DNA from: Promethearchaeota archaeon
Lineage (GTDB): Archaea > Asgardarchaeota > Lokiarchaeia > Sigyniarchaeales > SOKP01
NCBI GenBank assembly: GCA_004524535.1
Contig: SDNY01000075.1
Span: forward strand, 1-17,339
Direction: 5' to 3'
Length of the DNA stretch: 17,339 nucleotides
Shown here one piece after another: positions 4,838-11,275 of the stretch. Each line of letters opens with the position of its first letter. The first letter of the stretch is position 1. The notes under the pieces are model-generated. The model was not told where the DNA came from. It saw only the letters and a list, made by a program, of their open reading frames with translations, and searched no databases. The position numbers and the translations under genes were made by a program.

Positions 4838-5083
4838 TTGAGTTGGGTTAAACTAAATCTATTTTATCTAGGAGAGTCCAAAAAGAATCAAATCTTTAGG
4901 AGTACTCATTGGAATAGGGCTAAAGATGAAAAAATTTTTAGAAAAACTGTTTATAACGAAGAATACGAGAAAATTGGATATATTAAAGAAATTTTTGGCC
5001 CTTTAAAATTACCTTTTATATCGATTAAAACCATCCCCGGTCAAGAATTTAACCCAAAAAGCAATCTTTATGTTAAAGTGTAA
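4838..5083 (+). CDS. gar1: H/ACA RNP component Gar1/Naf1 family protein
   Basis: TTG start with AAGGT upstream; VYNEEYEKIGYIKEIFGPLKLPFISIK matches the archaeal Gar1 core. Sits directly upstream of tfb, a common archaeal gene order. Confidence 0.8.
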   Translation: MSWVKLNLFYLGESKKNQIFRSTHWNRAKDEKIFRKTVYNEEYEKIGYIKEIFGPLKLPFISIKTIPGQEFNPKSNLYVKV

Positions 5084-5133: not shown

Positions 5134-6099
5134 ATTTCAAGTTGGAAAGAAGTTAAAACGTTATTTGATGAAAATGACGATGGGTTATCTGTAAAACACT
5201 GTTCAGAATGCGGGTATATCATATCTTACGATGAAAATAGAGGATTAATGGTATGTGAACAATGTGGTTTAATAAAATCAGAAAGATATATTGATCGAGG
5301 TCCAGAATGGCGGGCTTTTGATGCTGACCAAAAAAAGAAAAGAACTCGAACGGGAGCTCCAATGACATACATGATTCATGATAAAGGTCTAAGTACTATG
5401 ATTGATTGGAAAAATCGTGATATTTACGGAAAAGAAATATCCGCCAGATTAAGAGCACAGATTTATAGAATCCGAAAATGGCAGAACCGTATAAGAGTAT
5501 CTAACGCAAATGAGAGAAATTTAACGTTCGCATTAAGCGAACTAGATCGTATGGCTTCAAATTTAGACCTTCAAAAAAATTTGAGAGAATGTTCAGCAAA
5601 AATATATAGAGATGCTGTACAAGCACATCTGATTCGTGGAAGATCAATTGAGGGTGTCGCTGCGGCGAGCCTATATGCCGCTTGTCGAATGTATAAAGTA
5701 CCTCGAACATTAAATGAAATTGCGGAAGTTGCTCGGGTAAACAAAAAAGAAATTGGCAGATCATTTAGATTTATTACAAATGAATTAAATTTAAATTTAA
5801 CTCCAACGAAACCATTAGATTTCCTCATTCGGTTTATAAGTGAACTCGGCTTATCTCAACAATGCCAAAGTATATCCAAAAAAATTATAAAAATAGCAGA
5901 AATGCGTGGACTAACTTCTGGGAGAGACCCTACAGGAGTTTGTGCAGCCGCAATTTATGCGTCATCAATTTTATGTAAAGAAAGAAGAACTCAAAGAAAG
6001 ATTGCTAAGATTTCACAAGTAACAGAAGTTACTATTAGAAATCGATTTAGTGAATTAGTTGAAAATTTTGACTTAGGAATCCCATTAAAAAAAAGATAA
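5134..6099 (+). CDS. tfb: Transcription initiation factor IIB (TFB), about 321 aa, probable ATT start
   Basis: Zn ribbon CSEC...CEQC, B-reader GPEWRAF, HDKGLST, two cyclin folds ([34 protein letters not shown]). The ORF-track ATG at 5248 cuts the Zn ribbon in half. The frame is open back to TAA at 5128-5130 with no ATG/GTG/TTG, and ATT at 5134 follows AGGTG. Gene identity is secure; the start position is less certain. Confidence 0.9.
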
Positions 6100-6856: not shown

Positions 6857-7327
6857 TTGAGTTCTTCTCGAAACGAACAAATGTTAAAGCAGATATTAAC
6901 TACAATTATTAATAGTGCGGCAGGATTAAAATATGCCATAATAATTGATGATACAGGATTAACTATTGCCTCTCAATCTAAATTTACTTTTACTGAAGAT
7001 GATCACGGTTCAGTCGAAAAAATTGGAGCTATTGGGGGAGCCGTCTTTACTGCTGGAGAAGAACAAGGACAAATCCTTGGGTATGGAGAAATAAATCTTC
7101 AAATTACTGAATATAAAAAAGGATTGATTTTTTCAATTAAACTTGATGACGGTGTTTTAGTTCTCGCAACAGATTTAAACGTCCAAGTTGGATTTATTCG
7201 CGCCCTTTTGAAGAAATGGGCCCCGCGGATCACAAAAATTTTAAATAAATACTTAGAAAGCAGCGATCAAAAAGCAATGAAAGAAGAATTAAAAGAGCTT
7301 TTTAGTACTGATTCTTTAGGATTTTAA
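6857..7327 (+). CDS. Roadblock/LC7 (MglB/LAMTOR-like) domain protein
   Basis: TTG start; LKYAIIIDDTGLTIAS, IGAIGGAVFTAGEEQGQILGYGEI, ITEYKKGLIF, GVLVLATD..VQVGFIR is the classic Roadblock layout, plus a C-terminal helical extension. Confidence 0.85.
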   Translation: MSSSRNEQMLKQILTTIINSAAGLKYAIIIDDTGLTIASQSKFTFTEDDHGSVEKIGAIGGAVFTAGEEQGQILGYGEINLQITEYKKGLIFSIKLDDGVLVLATDLNVQVGFIRALLKKWAPRITKILNKYLESSDQKAMKEELKELFSTDSLGF

Positions 7328-7395
7328 TTTATAAACTCATTTTAATATTAGATCTTTTTTAAAATAAATCTCATAGTGGTTTAAATAAATAAAAA

Positions 7396-7713
7396 GGTAA
7401 GGCATTATTGTAGCCTAAAGAGCCGAAACACACTAACACATCTTTCTCATTTATTGGGTATACCGTAAAATCAAAAAAGTTCTCTCGTGTAAGGCGTTAA
7501 TTTCATGCCTTGTTGGGTCATAACCATGTCTGCGACCTGGGTACTGGCTTCAACCTCATTGCTTTGATATTTATCGTTGCTTGGTTAAGAGCCCATTTTA
7601 TTCGCAGCTAATTGCTGATTATTAAACTCGGGATGTTCGCATTTCTTTGCACACATAATCATCGATTTTCATATGTGCCCTCGAAAATGCAGATACTCCG
7701 TCATTATTTTCCC
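7396..7713 (-). ncRNA. Candidate unclassified structured non-coding RNA (about 310 nt)
   Basis: 40% GC (120/300 over 7401-7700) versus 13% at 14941-15060; no long ORF; six or seven consecutive stems whose G-U pairs mostly favour the - strand; TTTATAA at 7743-7737 upstream; T5 at 7395-7391 downstream. Confidence 0.5.
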
Positions 7714-7750
7714 AATATAATAATAGAAAAATAAGGTTATAAAGATTTTG

Positions 7751-9295
7751 TTAACGTTTTCCTCTTAACTTATCTAAAAATTTATGTTCCGTTTTTCTCC
7801 TTATTAAGACGGCATAGATGAGCATAATGATAAAAAGTGTAAAAATTCCAATTATAATATTAATTTCTAATTCTGGAAGCCATCCTAGACCCTCTGTATC
7901 ATAAAATACCTTGCCAGTTTTAGAATCTCTAAAAACCTTACCCCCTGCACCTCCCTCTTCACTATATGCAATGACTATCTCCCAATCTTTTAGTTCATTA
8001 TCTGGATTGTCTGGATCTACTGTACCATCTTCGTATTCGAATTTAAGAGTTATAACAGTTCCATCGAGTTCTACATCTCCGTAGACTTTTAGATCAGGAT
8101 TAAGACCTTCGATATTCGTCTCATAATCTTCACCATCAATATCAAAATCATCAATTACTGTCGCAAGGTACTTATCTACTGGAGTGTAAGTTGGTAACCC
8201 CGCCAGCATTAAGAAGAAAAAGAAATTAAATTTTTCTGGAATTTCTTCTTCAATAATATCCCGTATTGCCAGTAATCCCTTTGTGCCTTGTTGAAGAGGA
8301 TTCTCTCCAGTTGGATTAAGAGCTGCATCTAAAACTAACGCTGGGAGATTATCCCCTCCTTCGGATGGTCTAGGGAGGGGTATCCCCAACTCTGCTTCAA
8401 TAGTATTCGCTATTTCAGTATTTACAGTAGTCCAAAGAATAAATTCGTTGTTTTTTAAATACGTAAACGAATCATTAAAGGCTAATATGGAATTTACAAC
8501 TAAATCGCTTCTATAATATAGCTCAGATTCTAGCGCTTTTAATCTTTTATATGAATCGTACCAAACATCAGGGTCTTCCAAGAATGGGCCTCCACCCTCA
8601 CTATCAGGTTTATCAGGAAAATCTCCTTCAGTTATTCTATCCCAACCTCTTGTTTCAACCATTGTACATTCTACTTTTTCACCATATTTATTATTCACAT
8701 AAGTCTGATCCATATTATAACTTAGACATAAATCTGTTGCAATAGAACCGTTTCCAGCAACATAGGCCTGTGCACTACCAGGTGGAGCAGTTACATCCCA
8801 ATTTAAAGGGTCGGAAGTTATTCCCTCGTATAGAAGACCTATTGCACCTTGTTCATTTTCAGGATCTCCAAGCTCATTTGTGGAGTCCATTATGTAACCA
8901 AAAACACTATTGAAATCTGTAATTTCTTCTATACCCTCAACATCGACATCTACTGTAAGTATATAGTCGCCAAAAAAATCAATTTCATCTTCTTCCCAAC
9001 CGACAAGTTTTCCCTTACTTTTTGCTCCAACAACGTCAGCATATTTCCCAAAAAAATCGTCTGGGTTATCAGCCCCCACTCCTAAATGATCATCCCATTC
9101 GTCCTCGTCGTATAATATTACTCGTGACTCTCCTGCTATTCCTTTACCAACCTCAGGTACTCCAAATTCATACTTCACAGGTTTTTCTATGGTAAAAAAG
9201 CTAAAAAAAATGTAAATAAAAGGTAGTAGTAATGATACAATAAACAATCCATATAATATTGCTTTTGATACTTTTATTATTACATGTTTATTCAT
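7751..9295 (-). CDS. Acidic cell-surface protein with N- and C-terminal TM helices (paralog A, 514 aa)
   Basis: N-terminal hydrophobic segment, D/E-rich ectodomain, C-terminal TM followed by a basic tail (IIIGIFTLFIIMLIYAVLIRRK); paralog of 9716-11275. Confidence 0.85.
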   Translation of the reverse strand: MNKHVIIKVSKAILYGLFIVSLLLPFIYIFFSFFTIEKPVKYEFGVPEVGKGIAGESRVILYDEDEWDDHLGVGADNPDDFFGKYADVVGAKSKGKLVGWEEDEIDFFGDYILTVDVDVEGIEEITDFNSVFGYIMDSTNELGDPENEQGAIGLLYEGITSDPLNWDVTAPPGSAQAYVAGNGSIATDLCLSYNMDQTYVNNKYGEKVECTMVETRGWDRITEGDFPDKPDSEGGGPFLEDPDVWYDSYKRLKALESELYYRSDLVVNSILAFNDSFTYLKNNEFILWTTVNTEIANTIEAELGIPLPRPSEGGDNLPALVLDAALNPTGENPLQQGTKGLLAIRDIIEEEIPEKFNFFFFLMLAGLPTYTPVDKYLATVIDDFDIDGEDYETNIEGLNPDLKVYGDVELDGTVITLKFEYEDGTVDPDNPDNELKDWEIVIAYSEEGGAGGKVFRDSKTGKVFYDTEGLGWLPELEINIIIGIFTLFIIMLIYAVLIRRKTEHKFLDKLRGKR

Positions 9296-9334: not shown

Positions 9335-9652
9335 TTATTTTATTCTCTTTGTCCGCAATTTAATTTTTATCCAGGTAATTGCAATTGCGGCCGCGCTAAA
9401 TATCATAACAATTGAAAATCCAATATAAATATTAACAATAGGAACTTTGTCAGAGAGTATTTCATCAACATCATCCTCATAAGATTTTTCTTTTTCAAGT
9501 TCTCTTAGAACCGTAGCTGTAATGATAGCAGCGCAATAATTGTCATAGTTGTCGTAAGCTCTTATTTCAACCTTGTAAATACCAAGTCGAAGTATGATGG
9601 AAGTAATCGTGTCGTCAAGATCAATAGCGAAGAATTCCGTGTCATTAATCCG
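9335..9652 (-). pseudogene. Headless, in-frame copy of the C-terminus of the 1192-aa surface protein (silent cassette or relic)
   Basis: Translates without interruption as RINDTEFFAIDLDDTITSIILRLGIYKVEIRAYDNYDNYCAAIITATVLRELEKEKSYEDDVDEILSDKVPIVNIYIGFSIVMIFSAAAIAITWIKIKLRTKRIK*, about 75% identical to the end of 11336-14914. Preceded in frame by TAA TGA; no canonical start at its 5' end; absent from the ORF track. Confidence 0.88.
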
Positions 9653-9715
9653 TCATTATGTTCCCAATATAATAATAAAATAATAAATAGAAAAAAAATG
9701 TTATAAAGAATTTTT

Positions 9716-11275
9716 TTAACGTTTTCTTAACTTATCTAAAAATTTATGTTCACTTTTTCTCCTTATTAAGACGGCATAGATGAGCATAATGACAAAAAGT
9801 GTAGAAATTCCTATTATAATTGTAACTTCTAATTCTGGAAGATACCCTAGACCTCCTGTTTGATAAAATACCTTGCCATCCTCATCTCTTAAAATAATAG
9901 AACCTTGAGATCCCTCATCACCATAAACAAAGGAAATTTCCCAATTTTTTAGTATTTTATCTGGATTGTCTGGATCTACTGTACCATCTTCGTAGTCGAA
10001 TTTAAGAGTTAACACAGTTCCATCGAGTTCTACATCTCCATACACTTTTAGATCAGGATTAAGACCACTAATATACGTCTCAGGCACTGTACCATCAAGA
10101 TCAAAATCATCAACTACTTTACTAAGGTATTTATGCACTGGAGTATATGTTGGTAAACCCTCCAGTAATAACGAAAAAAGAAAATTAAATTTATCTGGAA
10201 CATTATCTGAAACAAGATCATATACTGCCAGTATTCCCTCTGACCCTTGTTGAAGAGGATTCTCTCCAGTTGGATTAAGAGCTGCATCTAAAACTAATGC
10301 TGGGAGATTATCCCCTCCTTCGGAAGGTCTAATGGCTGGTATCCCCAAATCTGTTACAATCTTATCCGCTATTTGATCATTTACAGTACTCCAAGCGGTA
10401 GGTACTTTGTTTTTTAAATTCGTAAATGAATCATTAAAGGCTCTTATGGAATATACAACTTTATCACACTGAGCATATAGCTCATTTTCTAGCGCAGTTA
10501 ATCTTTTAAATGCATTGTACCATTCATGAGGGTCATCCAAGAATGGGGCATCAGCCTCATCTCCTTCCAAATCAGGATTATCATCATAATCTTCGACTGT
10601 ATAATCCCATGCTTCTCTTTCAAGTAATACACCGTCTAATTTTTCAGCATATTTTTCATTCACATAAGCCGTATCCATTGGAAAGTTAGTACAAGTATCA
10701 ATTGCAATAGAACCGTTTCCAGCAACATAGGCCTGTGCACTACCAGGAGGAGCATTTTTAGTATCATTCCAACTTAAAGGTTTGGAGATTATTCCCTCGT
10801 ATAGAAGACCTACTGCACCTTGGTCACTTTCAGGATCTGCAAGCCCCCATATGCCATCAGCTACATAATCAAAAACAGAATTGAAATCTGTAAGTTCTTC
10901 TATACCCTCAACCTCGATCGATGTTGTAAGTATAAAGTCGCTAAAAAATTCAAGAATTTCTTCATCTTCTTCCCAATCGAGAACTTTTGTCTTACTTTTT
11001 GCACCAACGACATCAGCATCTCCCCCAAAATAATCGTCTGGGTTATCAGCCCCCACTCCTAAATGATTATTCCATTCGTCCTCGTCGTATAATATTACTT
11101 GTCCCTCTGTTGTCATTCCTTTAGCAATATCAGGTACTCCAAATTCATACTTACTCACAGGTTTTGCTATGGTAAAATAGCTAAAAAAAATGTAAATAAA
11201 AGGTAGTAGTAATGATACAATAAACAATCCATATAATATTGCTTTTGATACTTTTTTTATTACATCTTTATTCAT
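9716..11275 (-). CDS. Acidic cell-surface protein with N- and C-terminal TM helices (paralog B, 519 aa)
   Basis: Same architecture as 7751-9295; same leader sequence (9291-9315 = 11271-11295); 60 nt downstream of the large gene, so probably co-transcribed. Confidence 0.85.
   Translation of the reverse strand: MNKDVIKKVSKAILYGLFIVSLLLPFIYIFFSYFTIAKPVSKYEFGVPDIAKGMTTEGQVILYDEDEWNNHLGVGADNPDDYFGGDADVVGAKSKTKVLDWEEDEEILEFFSDFILTTSIEVEGIEELTDFNSVFDYVADGIWGLADPESDQGAVGLLYEGIISKPLSWNDTKNAPPGSAQAYVAGNGSIAIDTCTNFPMDTAYVNEKYAEKLDGVLLEREAWDYTVEDYDDNPDLEGDEADAPFLDDPHEWYNAFKRLTALENELYAQCDKVVYSIRAFNDSFTNLKNKVPTAWSTVNDQIADKIVTDLGIPAIRPSEGGDNLPALVLDAALNPTGENPLQQGSEGILAVYDLVSDNVPDKFNFLFSLLLEGLPTYTPVHKYLSKVVDDFDLDGTVPETYISGLNPDLKVYGDVELDGTVLTLKFDYEDGTVDPDNPDKILKNWEISFVYGDEGSQGSIILRDEDGKVFYQTGGLGYLPELEVTIIIGISTLFVIMLIYAVLIRRKSEHKFLDKLRKR

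Follow-up and report, generated by a model that had tools for sequence, protein, structure and literature searches.

What is encoded by the G+C-rich, apparently non-coding island that lies between positions 7,396 and 7,713 of contig SDNY01000075.1 from a Promethearchaeota archaeon (assembly GCA_004524535.1)? The whole stretch that we analysed, hereafter the window, comprises 17,339 nucleotides (nt) of this contig, and its genes and RNA models indicate that the organism is an archaeon. A preliminary description of the island, made from the sequence alone, had proposed a novel structured RNA of about 310 nt, read from the minus strand between a promoter and a terminator of its own. We find that positions 7715-7391 of the minus strand are a single-copy gene for a discrete structured non-coding RNA of about 310-320 nt, and we think it likely that this RNA is a diverged three-motif box H/ACA pseudouridylation guide small RNA (sRNA). 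The word "novel" is therefore not one that we retain, since H/ACA anatomy and complementarity to ribosomal RNA (rRNA) assign the RNA to the archaeal box H/ACA guide sRNAs with several motifs, a class already known, and a new RNA class is not supported.

Conservation and covariation of the fold

The G+C content of the island is 0.40-0.41 over positions 7400-7699, versus 0.27 in both flanks, and stop-to-stop frames within 7330-7760 (upstream gene excepted) reach at most 42 amino acids (aa), in agreement with its being described as a non-coding island of about 40% G+C. By BLAST we found one homologous copy, 70-97% identical, in 21 of the 23 other genomes of the family and none in 16 genomes from other families of the order. 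A covariance model of the RNA, termed R1 (302 positions, 51 pairs, with disputed helices excluded), matched 121 of the 150 genomes scanned from the order. Within the family these comprised 118 of 130 genomes, nearly always with a single copy; 2 of 14 genomes of a second family also matched, and none of 5 in two further families of the order. Genomes sampled from other families of the class were matched in 5 of 10 cases, full-length matches of 64-125 bits were obtained in further families (f5, 2 of 2; f7, 2 of 2; f6, 0 of 3), and other classes contributed 9 of 36 genomes sampled, 2 of those with weak matches. In the window itself the R1 match spans 7402-7710 (319.5 bits), and the P0 helix described below pushes the 5' end to 7715.

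The evidence for the fold comes from 57 distinct copies that were aligned with MAFFT, which is blind to structure; a 68-pair structure was then mapped onto the alignment from the window sequence, and pairs were counted. Paired cells made up 89.7% of this alignment, as compared with 81.5% in shuffles and 34-43% when the partners were slid by 1-3 columns. Changes on both sides of a pair occurred at 51 of the 68 pairs, as compared with 28.8 in shuffles (none of 500 reached the observed value) and 21-27 with partners slid, so that the covariation which the preliminary description had asked after is present among these homologues. Both-side changes are seen in all of helices 3-16 except the 3-base-pair (bp) CAC/GUG and the 2-bp apical GG/CC. 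RNAalifold applied to 20 copies returned 57 pairs, 21 of them with compensatory changes. The folding z-score, which had been suggested as a further check, was not significant: the single-sequence fold was no better than shuffles (-0.62 for the minus strand and -0.13 for the plus strand), and the structure is therefore unsupported by this one sequence. The strand assignment stands, as G-U pairs mark the minus strand as the one transcribed.

RNA-derived material agrees with a discrete transcript. Metatranscriptome contigs from 4 runs in 4 studies were confined to 7466-7702 of the 1301-base stretch 6900-8200, with neither flanking gene covered and with 7391-7465 and 7703-7715 likewise uncovered. 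With family-wide conservation, covariation and RNA-library contigs that lack the flanking genes, the proposal of a discrete structured minus-strand RNA of about 310 nt is borne out.

The RNA is organized as three hairpin domains, of which domains 1 and 2 are closed into a three-way junction by a helix that we call P0, and domain 3 is closed by GCAU/AUGC. All 6 pairs of P0 show both-side changes, 80.5% of its cells are paired, and among the variants seen by eye in an alignment of 20 loci are GGGAC/GUCCC, AUGGGA/UCCCAU and GGGGA/UCCCC. A kink-turn signature, AUGA opposite GA, occurs at four places, namely at the base of domain 1, at the tip of domain 1 (as a kink-loop, or K-loop), in domain 2 and in domain 3; these assignments were made by eye from sequence rules and not scored with a tool. 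The motif at the base of domain 1, the 5' kink-turn, has an invariant GA dinucleotide in the 57-copy alignment and both-side changes at all 4 pairs of its stem I (column pair 12/116, for example, is CG in 22, UA in 17 and UG in 17). By eye, the stem becomes AAUC/GAUU and UUC/GAA in the two copies of the second family, and the kink-turn is retained in copies from other families and classes. Each upper stem is capped by one of the three remaining AUGA-opposite-GA motifs, in which the GA bases vary little or not at all. Under the H/ACA geometry given below, most invariant single-stranded blocks, such as CGAGG, GCA, GGGC, GAGAG and GUUAGUG, represent pocket strands, GA pairs of kink-turns or ANA boxes, and the stems between them covary.

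About half of the helices predicted in the preliminary description were right. Compensatory changes were observed in the inner GCACAUA/UAUGUGU, in the first five pairs of GCAUUUU/GAAAUGC and in the inner three pairs of UUAACC/GGUUGA. CUUUUUU/GAGAAAG was out of register by 3 nt, the supported helix being 7479-7474 with 7444-7439. CAGC/GCUG gave way to a long-range helix, 7607-7603 with 7535-7531, which covaries from CUGCA/UGCAG to CCCUG/CAGGG. A covarying long-range helix likewise replaces GGUCG/UGACC, two positions of which pair in only 5 and 8 of 20 sequences. AAGGC/GCCUU was superseded by GCAU/AUGC and GCCUAA/UUAGGC; by eye, some copies have lost the GCAU arm along with the AUGC arm, and in two distant ones the arms have grown to 8-10 bp. 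GAGUUUA/UGGGCUC is pairable within the family, fails by eye in the two copies of the second family, and is in competition with the kink-turn stem, for which support is better. The junction helix GGaGUAuCUG/CAGUACCC also fell, three of its eight positions pairing in only 9, 27 and 26 of the 57 copies.

Three probable H/ACA motifs and their predicted rRNA targets

Published rules for archaeal H/ACA guides set a distance of 14-15 nt between ANA box and target and of 5-6 bp between kink-turn and pocket (PMC2377435, section 31), and the same source rates the 3' guide as more important than the 5' guide. Each of the three domains can be read by these rules. In motif 1 all 57 copies have an ANA box, which 53 of them place 14 nt from the 3'-guide top. 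For motif 2, ACA or AUA is seen in 53 of 57 copies; the spacing to the A of ACCCAG is 13 nt in 51 of 57, or 14 nt if the base preceding ACCCAG is taken as the top of the guide. Motif 3 has ACA in 50 of 57 copies. The upper stems of motifs 1, 2 and 3 are 7, 6 and 6 bp long, respectively. Coordinates are collected in Table 1.

Table 1. Features of the RNA gene and its surroundings, in positions of the window
Feature	Position	Strand	Remarks
Whole RNA gene	7391..7715	-	from conserved UUGGG to U5 run; both ends predicted
TATA-like box TTTATAA	7737..7743	-	about 22 nt upstream of conserved UUGGG 5' end
P0 helix, 5' strand UUGGGA	7710..7715	-	pairs with 7513-7518
P0 helix, 3' strand ACCCAA	7513..7518	-	pairs with 7710-7715
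5' kink-turn, bulged strand	7698..7709	-	stem I AAAU and C-box-like AAUGACGG
5' kink-turn, opposite strand	7624..7631	-	D-box-like CCGA and stem I GUUU
H/ACA motif 1	7634..7699	-	clamp GGA/UCC; lower stem GCAUU/AAUGC; helices 3-6
Motif 1, 5' guide UCGAGG	7684-7679	-	
Motif 1, 3' guide GCAA	7650-7647	-	
Motif 1, K-loop UGA...GAUGAU	7671-7658	-	
Motif 1, ACA	7636-7634	-	
H/ACA motif 2	7521..7621	-	clamp UAAUC/GGUUA; lower stem CUGCG/UCGCAG; helices 7-11
Motif 2, 5' guide AUGGGCU	7596-7590	-	
Motif 2, 3' guide ACCCAG	7542-7537	-	
Motif 2, upper stem UUAACC/GGUUGA		-	kink-turn AA...GCAAUGA
Motif 2, extra bases AGCCAGU	7549-7543	-	between upper stem and 3' guide
Motif 2, ACA	7529-7527	-	
H/ACA motif 3	7402..7508	-	clamp GCAU/AUGC; lower stem GCCUUACAC/GUG..UUUAGGC; helices 12-16
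Motif 3, 5' guide GAGAGAA	7486-7480	-	
Motif 3, 3' guide GUUA	7437-7434	-	
Motif 3, upper stem	7479-7474 with 7444-7439	-	kink-turn UGAU / AAUGAG
Motif 3, genus-specific 11-nt insert UGUUUCGGCUC	7430-7420	-	3' strand of lower stem
Motif 3, ACA	7411-7409	-	

We used the genome's own rRNAs as targets in a scan of 1097 U sites in the large-subunit (LSU) and small-subunit (SSU) molecules, with the geometry fixed and the pocket tops set from the ANA distances. The LSU rRNA was located on contig C174 and the SSU rRNA on C76, where it is truncated at its 3' end; the former (C174:53392-56908) is 3517 nt long, as compared with 2987 positions in the archaeal model, and contains large insertions. In this strict scan exactly one of the 1097 sites attained, for each motif, that motif's level of two-sided pairing. 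Motif 1 can pair around LSU U2781, with UUGC opposite GCAA and CCUCGA opposite UCGAGG (4+6 bp). Motif 2 can pair around LSU U2909, with CUGGGU opposite ACCCAG and AGACCGU opposite AUGGGCU (one mismatch); this level was attained by shuffled rRNA in only 5 of 200 trials, and U2909 was also the best site under loose scoring, with 16 pairs. Motif 3 can pair around LSU U2178 in the loop of helix 69, with UAAC opposite GUUA and, on the other side, a U, a 1x2 loop and CUCUC opposite GAGAG (4+1+5 bp). Matching of flanking motifs to annotated E. coli rrl gave 2496, 2585 and 1915 as the E. coli equivalents of U2781, U2909 and U2178. If the base before ACCCAG is the top of the guide, the target of motif 2 shifts to U2910, equivalent to E. 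coli U2586, and the exact target would be one or the other of U2585 and U2586. A very loose scan with free offsets had been swamped by noise and was discarded, and moving the pocket top of motif 2, either to C149/A189 or so that GGCU/AGCC became part of the upper stem, yielded no good target.

The proteins required by such a guide are encoded in the genome to the following extent. Cbf5 (409.5 bits) and Nop10 (55.6 bits) are both above their cut-offs, and an 81-aa open reading frame (ORF) at 4838-5083 on the plus strand matches Pfam Gar1 at 27.7 bits, just below the cut-off of 29.3, this being the only such match in the genome. The Gar1-like ORF lies in the same window as the H/ACA RNA gene, 2.3 kb away from it.

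From the parts so assembled we infer how the predicted ribonucleoprotein (RNP) would work. Transcription of the three-motif guide from the minus strand would be driven by its own promoter. In each motif hairpin a lower stem would lead to an internal loop, which is the pseudouridylation pocket, and from there an upper stem to a kink-turn or K-loop able to bind L7Ae; the ANA box, 13-16 nt to the 3' side of the top of the pocket, would be bound by the PUA domain of Cbf5. The pocket strands would pair with LSU rRNA on both sides of the target uridine, leaving that U and the next base unpaired, and the uridine would be isomerized by Cbf5-Nop10-Gar1. The predicted targets are E. coli position 2496 for motif 1, U2585/U2586 in the peptidyl-transferase centre for motif 2, and U1915 in the helix 69 loop for motif 3. 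In addition to this basic H/ACA equipment the RNA has a C/D-like 5' kink-turn, the P0 three-way junction that joins motifs 1 and 2, and a clamp outside each ANA box.

Alternative readings and the gene locus

A number of observations weigh against the assignment to the H/ACA class, or against details of it. With regard to targets, the pairings of motifs 1 and 3 are short, and shuffled rRNA equalled the level of motif 1 in 62 and that of motif 3 in 63 of 200 trials. The sites for these two motifs were not top-ranked under loose scoring, and their pocket borders were fixed after candidate targets had been seen; an initial scan, in which the pockets were bounded by RNAalifold helices, gave no convincing target. 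Guide-target covariation was not observed, as guide and target were both invariant in the genomes checked (CUCUC, the 3' strand of helix 69, was found in every rRNA retrieved, from 4 of 12 genomes and as 3 rRNA copies elsewhere).

With regard to anatomy, the 7-bp upper stem of motif 1 is outside the 5-6 bp rule, and none of the ANA boxes is in a free linker or tail, each being placed in an internal loop that a clamp helix closes. The extra AGCCAGU of motif 2 (AGYCAGU across copies) can pair with GGCU of the motif's own 5' guide, a pairing that 50-55 of 57 copies allow and in which changes are restricted to one side; this is non-canonical and may mask the guide; the two copies of the second family carry a different 3' guide in this motif. 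The ACA distance of motif 3 departs from the 14-15 nt rule, being 16 nt from the top of the guide in 46 of 57 copies and 26 nt in this genome; by eye it is 14-15 nt in some copies from other classes. The value of 26 nt occurs in the 4 copies of this genus because the 11-nt insert shifts the box, and motif 3 may be impaired in these, or the insert may loop out. It should also be noted that the metatranscriptome contigs are silent on strand and ends, and that RNA libraries may contain DNA. Finally, the Rfam model for HgcG, RF00064 (gathering score 77 bits), had no match genome-wide at E<=10; none of 14 control genomes passed its cut-off either. In the Rfam comparison that the preliminary description had suggested, no family was significant on the region: the whole window was without a match at gathering score, and 7250-7850 had only chance-level matches at E<=10.

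One further reading is that in this phylum the ancient three-motif guide has a fixed higher-order architecture, with a C/D-type kink-turn around motif 1, a three-way junction, and a clamp outside every ANA box that puts the box in an internal loop, resembling the eukaryotic H box in its hinge. The particle might then be assembled or regulated unlike the one of Pyrococcus, for example as a mixed C/D-H/ACA particle of the type of the small Cajal body-specific RNAs (scaRNAs), or with the guide of motif 2 masked by AGYCAGU until the substrate arrives; we regard this as rather unlikely. A related proposal is that the H/ACA motifs function as described above and that the 5' kink-turn and the K-loop of hairpin 1 in addition recruit Nop5 and fibrillarin, giving a composite guide like eukaryotic scaRNAs or the C/D-bearing Pab21. 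Domain 1 does contain, by eye, C-, D'-, C'- and D-like boxes in canonical order (AAUGAYGG ... UGA ... RAUGAK ... CNGA), stem I covaries, the kink-turn persists in other families and classes, and Pab21 occurs in vivo with and without a C/D box motif according to PMC2377435. However, the two spacers between these boxes are about 25 nt long, not 12, and are paired with each other as the H/ACA hairpin, leaving no free antisense upstream of D or D'; the single-stranded guides of about 12 nt that mark a box C/D sRNA at these positions are absent. No methylation target was found, none having been sought, and a bare kink-turn binds L7Ae without Nop5. We consider a composite guide of this kind unlikely.

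It is quite improbable, in our estimation, that the RNA serves another function, as an RNP scaffold rich in kink-turns, for which the H/ACA pattern and the fit to three rRNA sites would be coincidental. The absence of an Rfam match, HgcG included, would suit a scaffold, as would the non-canonical clamps, the extra AGCCAGU, the 16-26 nt ACA distance of motif 3 and the fact that about a third of shuffles equalled the pairings of motif 1 and of motif 3. Yet all three hairpins have pocket, kink-turn and ANA at near-prescribed spacing, the invariant bases are the pocket strands, and the three best sites agree in order with the targets published for the known three-motif sRNA.

The setting of the gene bears on the remaining possibility, namely a cis-acting or antisense element or a decayed protein gene. 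The promoter-like TTTATAA proposed in the preliminary description is present, and a TTTATA/TTTTTA-like box occurs at the equivalent distance in homologous loci of the 20-locus alignment; a bacterial-type promoter scan marks 7743-7714 as well, which has little meaning for an archaeon. The U5 run proposed to end the element is found at 7395-7391, after the last helix. On the two sides the RNA gene is bounded by gene ends, that of a 514-aa gene (7751-9295, minus strand) upstream and that of a convergent 156-aa gene (6857-7327, plus strand) downstream. In 35 of 40 loci, the second family included, the RNA is followed at 3 to 185 nt by a convergent roadblock-like gene, and no functional link between the two was found. 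The upstream gene varies over the same loci (one family in 15, another in 6, others fewer), and the RNA is therefore hardly a 3' untranslated region (UTR). That the RNA belongs to the upstream gene as its 3' UTR or regulates the roadblock-like gene, as the near-constant position of the latter might suggest, or is a decayed gene, to which minus-strand open stretches of 27 and 37 codons that share a frame with a single TAA between them might point, is thus very improbable, given that the upstream gene is not constant, that the RNA has its own conserved TATA-like box, that the RNA contigs end before either neighbour, and that the substitutions are helix-compensatory and not codon-patterned, with no frame longer than 42 aa; the coding reading was rejected on the pattern of substitutions.

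Other identities were considered and set aside. The preliminary description had found neither RNase P RNA nor signal recognition particle (SRP) RNA in the island, and this is correct; the two RNAs are located elsewhere in the genome, on contigs C126 (119.2 bits) and C135 (60.4 bits), and their models have no match in the window. Readings as a selenocysteine insertion sequence (SECIS), U3, RNase MRP or a telomerase-like RNA, considered by their motifs, were dropped in view of the absence of an Rfam match, the variable upstream gene and the coverage of most invariant blocks by the H/ACA model.

Several features of the neighbourhood may be recorded here. The 156-aa protein matches Roadblock/LC7 and MAPKK1_Int only weakly, at E of about 1e-3 and short of the cut-off. 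A TFIIB gene at 5248-6099 adjoins the Gar1-like ORF, and TFB is near the RNA in many related loci. The minus-strand genes 7751-9295 and 9716-11275 encode paralogous proteins of about 515 aa, in which basic residues come after a hydrophobic stretch close to the C-terminus and for which Pfam gave no match; this family is upstream of the RNA in only 2 of 40 loci. The minus strand at 9640-9740 repeats the final codons of the neighbouring paralogue, the TATA-like box and about the first 25 nt of the RNA, and diverges beyond; this segment seems to be what is left of a tandem duplication of the membrane-protein gene (7751-9295, 9716-11275), with the promoter of the RNA carried along.

Comparison with known guide RNAs

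As a three-motif H/ACA guide, the RNA adds to these genomes an unannotated housekeeping RNA gene that Rfam missed. Three pseudouridines are predicted from it in the ribosome's functional core, one of them in helix 69 and the other two in the peptidyl-transferase region. In the collection of papers searched, none linked Asgard with ACA sRNA, or with Cbf5 plus guide RNA. R1, with the alignment of 57 sequences, could serve as seed for a new family or widen RF00064, and the added kink-turn, junction and clamps offer a concrete case for how multi-motif H/ACA particles are built.

Comparison with published targets depends on numbering. We take the E. coli positions of RluE, RluB and RluC to be 2457, 2605 and 2580. 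Because Pab35 covers the sites of these three enzymes, as stated in PMC2377435, we assign to Pab numbering in domain V an offset of +92 relative to E. coli, by which Pab 2588 would be E. coli 2496 and Pab 2678 would be 2586. According to PMC2377435, motif 1 of Pab40 is directed to 23S position 2588 and its motif 3 to 2016 in the helix 69 loop; motif 2 of Afu4/Pf7 is argued there to target Pab 2678, a pseudouridine in haloarchaea, fly and mouse. On that offset the three best sites of our RNA match these published Pab40/Pf7/Afu4 targets in order (Pab 2588, Pab 2678, and Pab 2016, the last at the level of the helix 69 loop), so that its motifs point to the sites of the known three-motif sRNA. The RNA is probably the functional counterpart and orthologue of Pab40/Pf7/Pho40/Afu4 of the Thermococcales and Archaeoglobus (Rfam HgcG, RF00064), which likewise combines three H/ACA motifs in a single molecule; a kink-turn or K-loop, assigned by eye in our RNA, goes with an ANA box in every motif. 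If this orthology is true, the three-motif guide and its set of targets are old within Archaea.

Motif 2 is irregular in both RNAs. In Pab40/Pf7 it has an additional stem-loop on the strand of the 5' guide, together with a weak helix 2 (PMC2377435), whereas the extra bases in our RNA are on the 3' guide strand. The two differ also in that the RF00064 model fails to match the RNA described here, and in that the latter has a C/D-like 5' kink-turn, a three-way junction and clamps, none of which we found in the available published text on Pab40/Pf7, the comparison being one of text only.

Single-motif guides such as Pab91 and Pf9, for which H/ACA RNP structures have been solved, share with the motifs of our RNA the succession of lower stem, pocket and upper stem, the K-loop or kink-turn (by eye in ours) and the ACA, the spacings being 14-15 nt and 5-6 bp (PMC2377435, section 31). 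The differences are the presence here of three motifs, the location of ANA in an internal loop, the 7-bp upper stem of motif 1 and the mostly 16-nt ACA distance of motif 3. Pab21 (PMC2377435) is likewise an archaeal H/ACA guide joined to a kink-turn motif of C/D type; in contrast to it, the C/D-like motif of our RNA encloses H/ACA motif 1 and is not a separate module, with no methylation guide evident.

With eukaryotic H/ACA small nucleolar RNAs (snoRNAs) the RNA shares conserved sites. Positions Pab 2016, 2549, 2588 and 2603 are listed as pseudouridines in eukaryotic large rRNAs as well (PMC2377435), and two of the sites predicted here are accordingly eukaryotic pseudouridines. The eukaryotic guides differ in being two-hairpin RNAs with an H box and without a kink-turn. 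Among them we take snR46 to be the guide for position 2865 of yeast 25S rRNA, which would presumably correspond to E. coli 2496.

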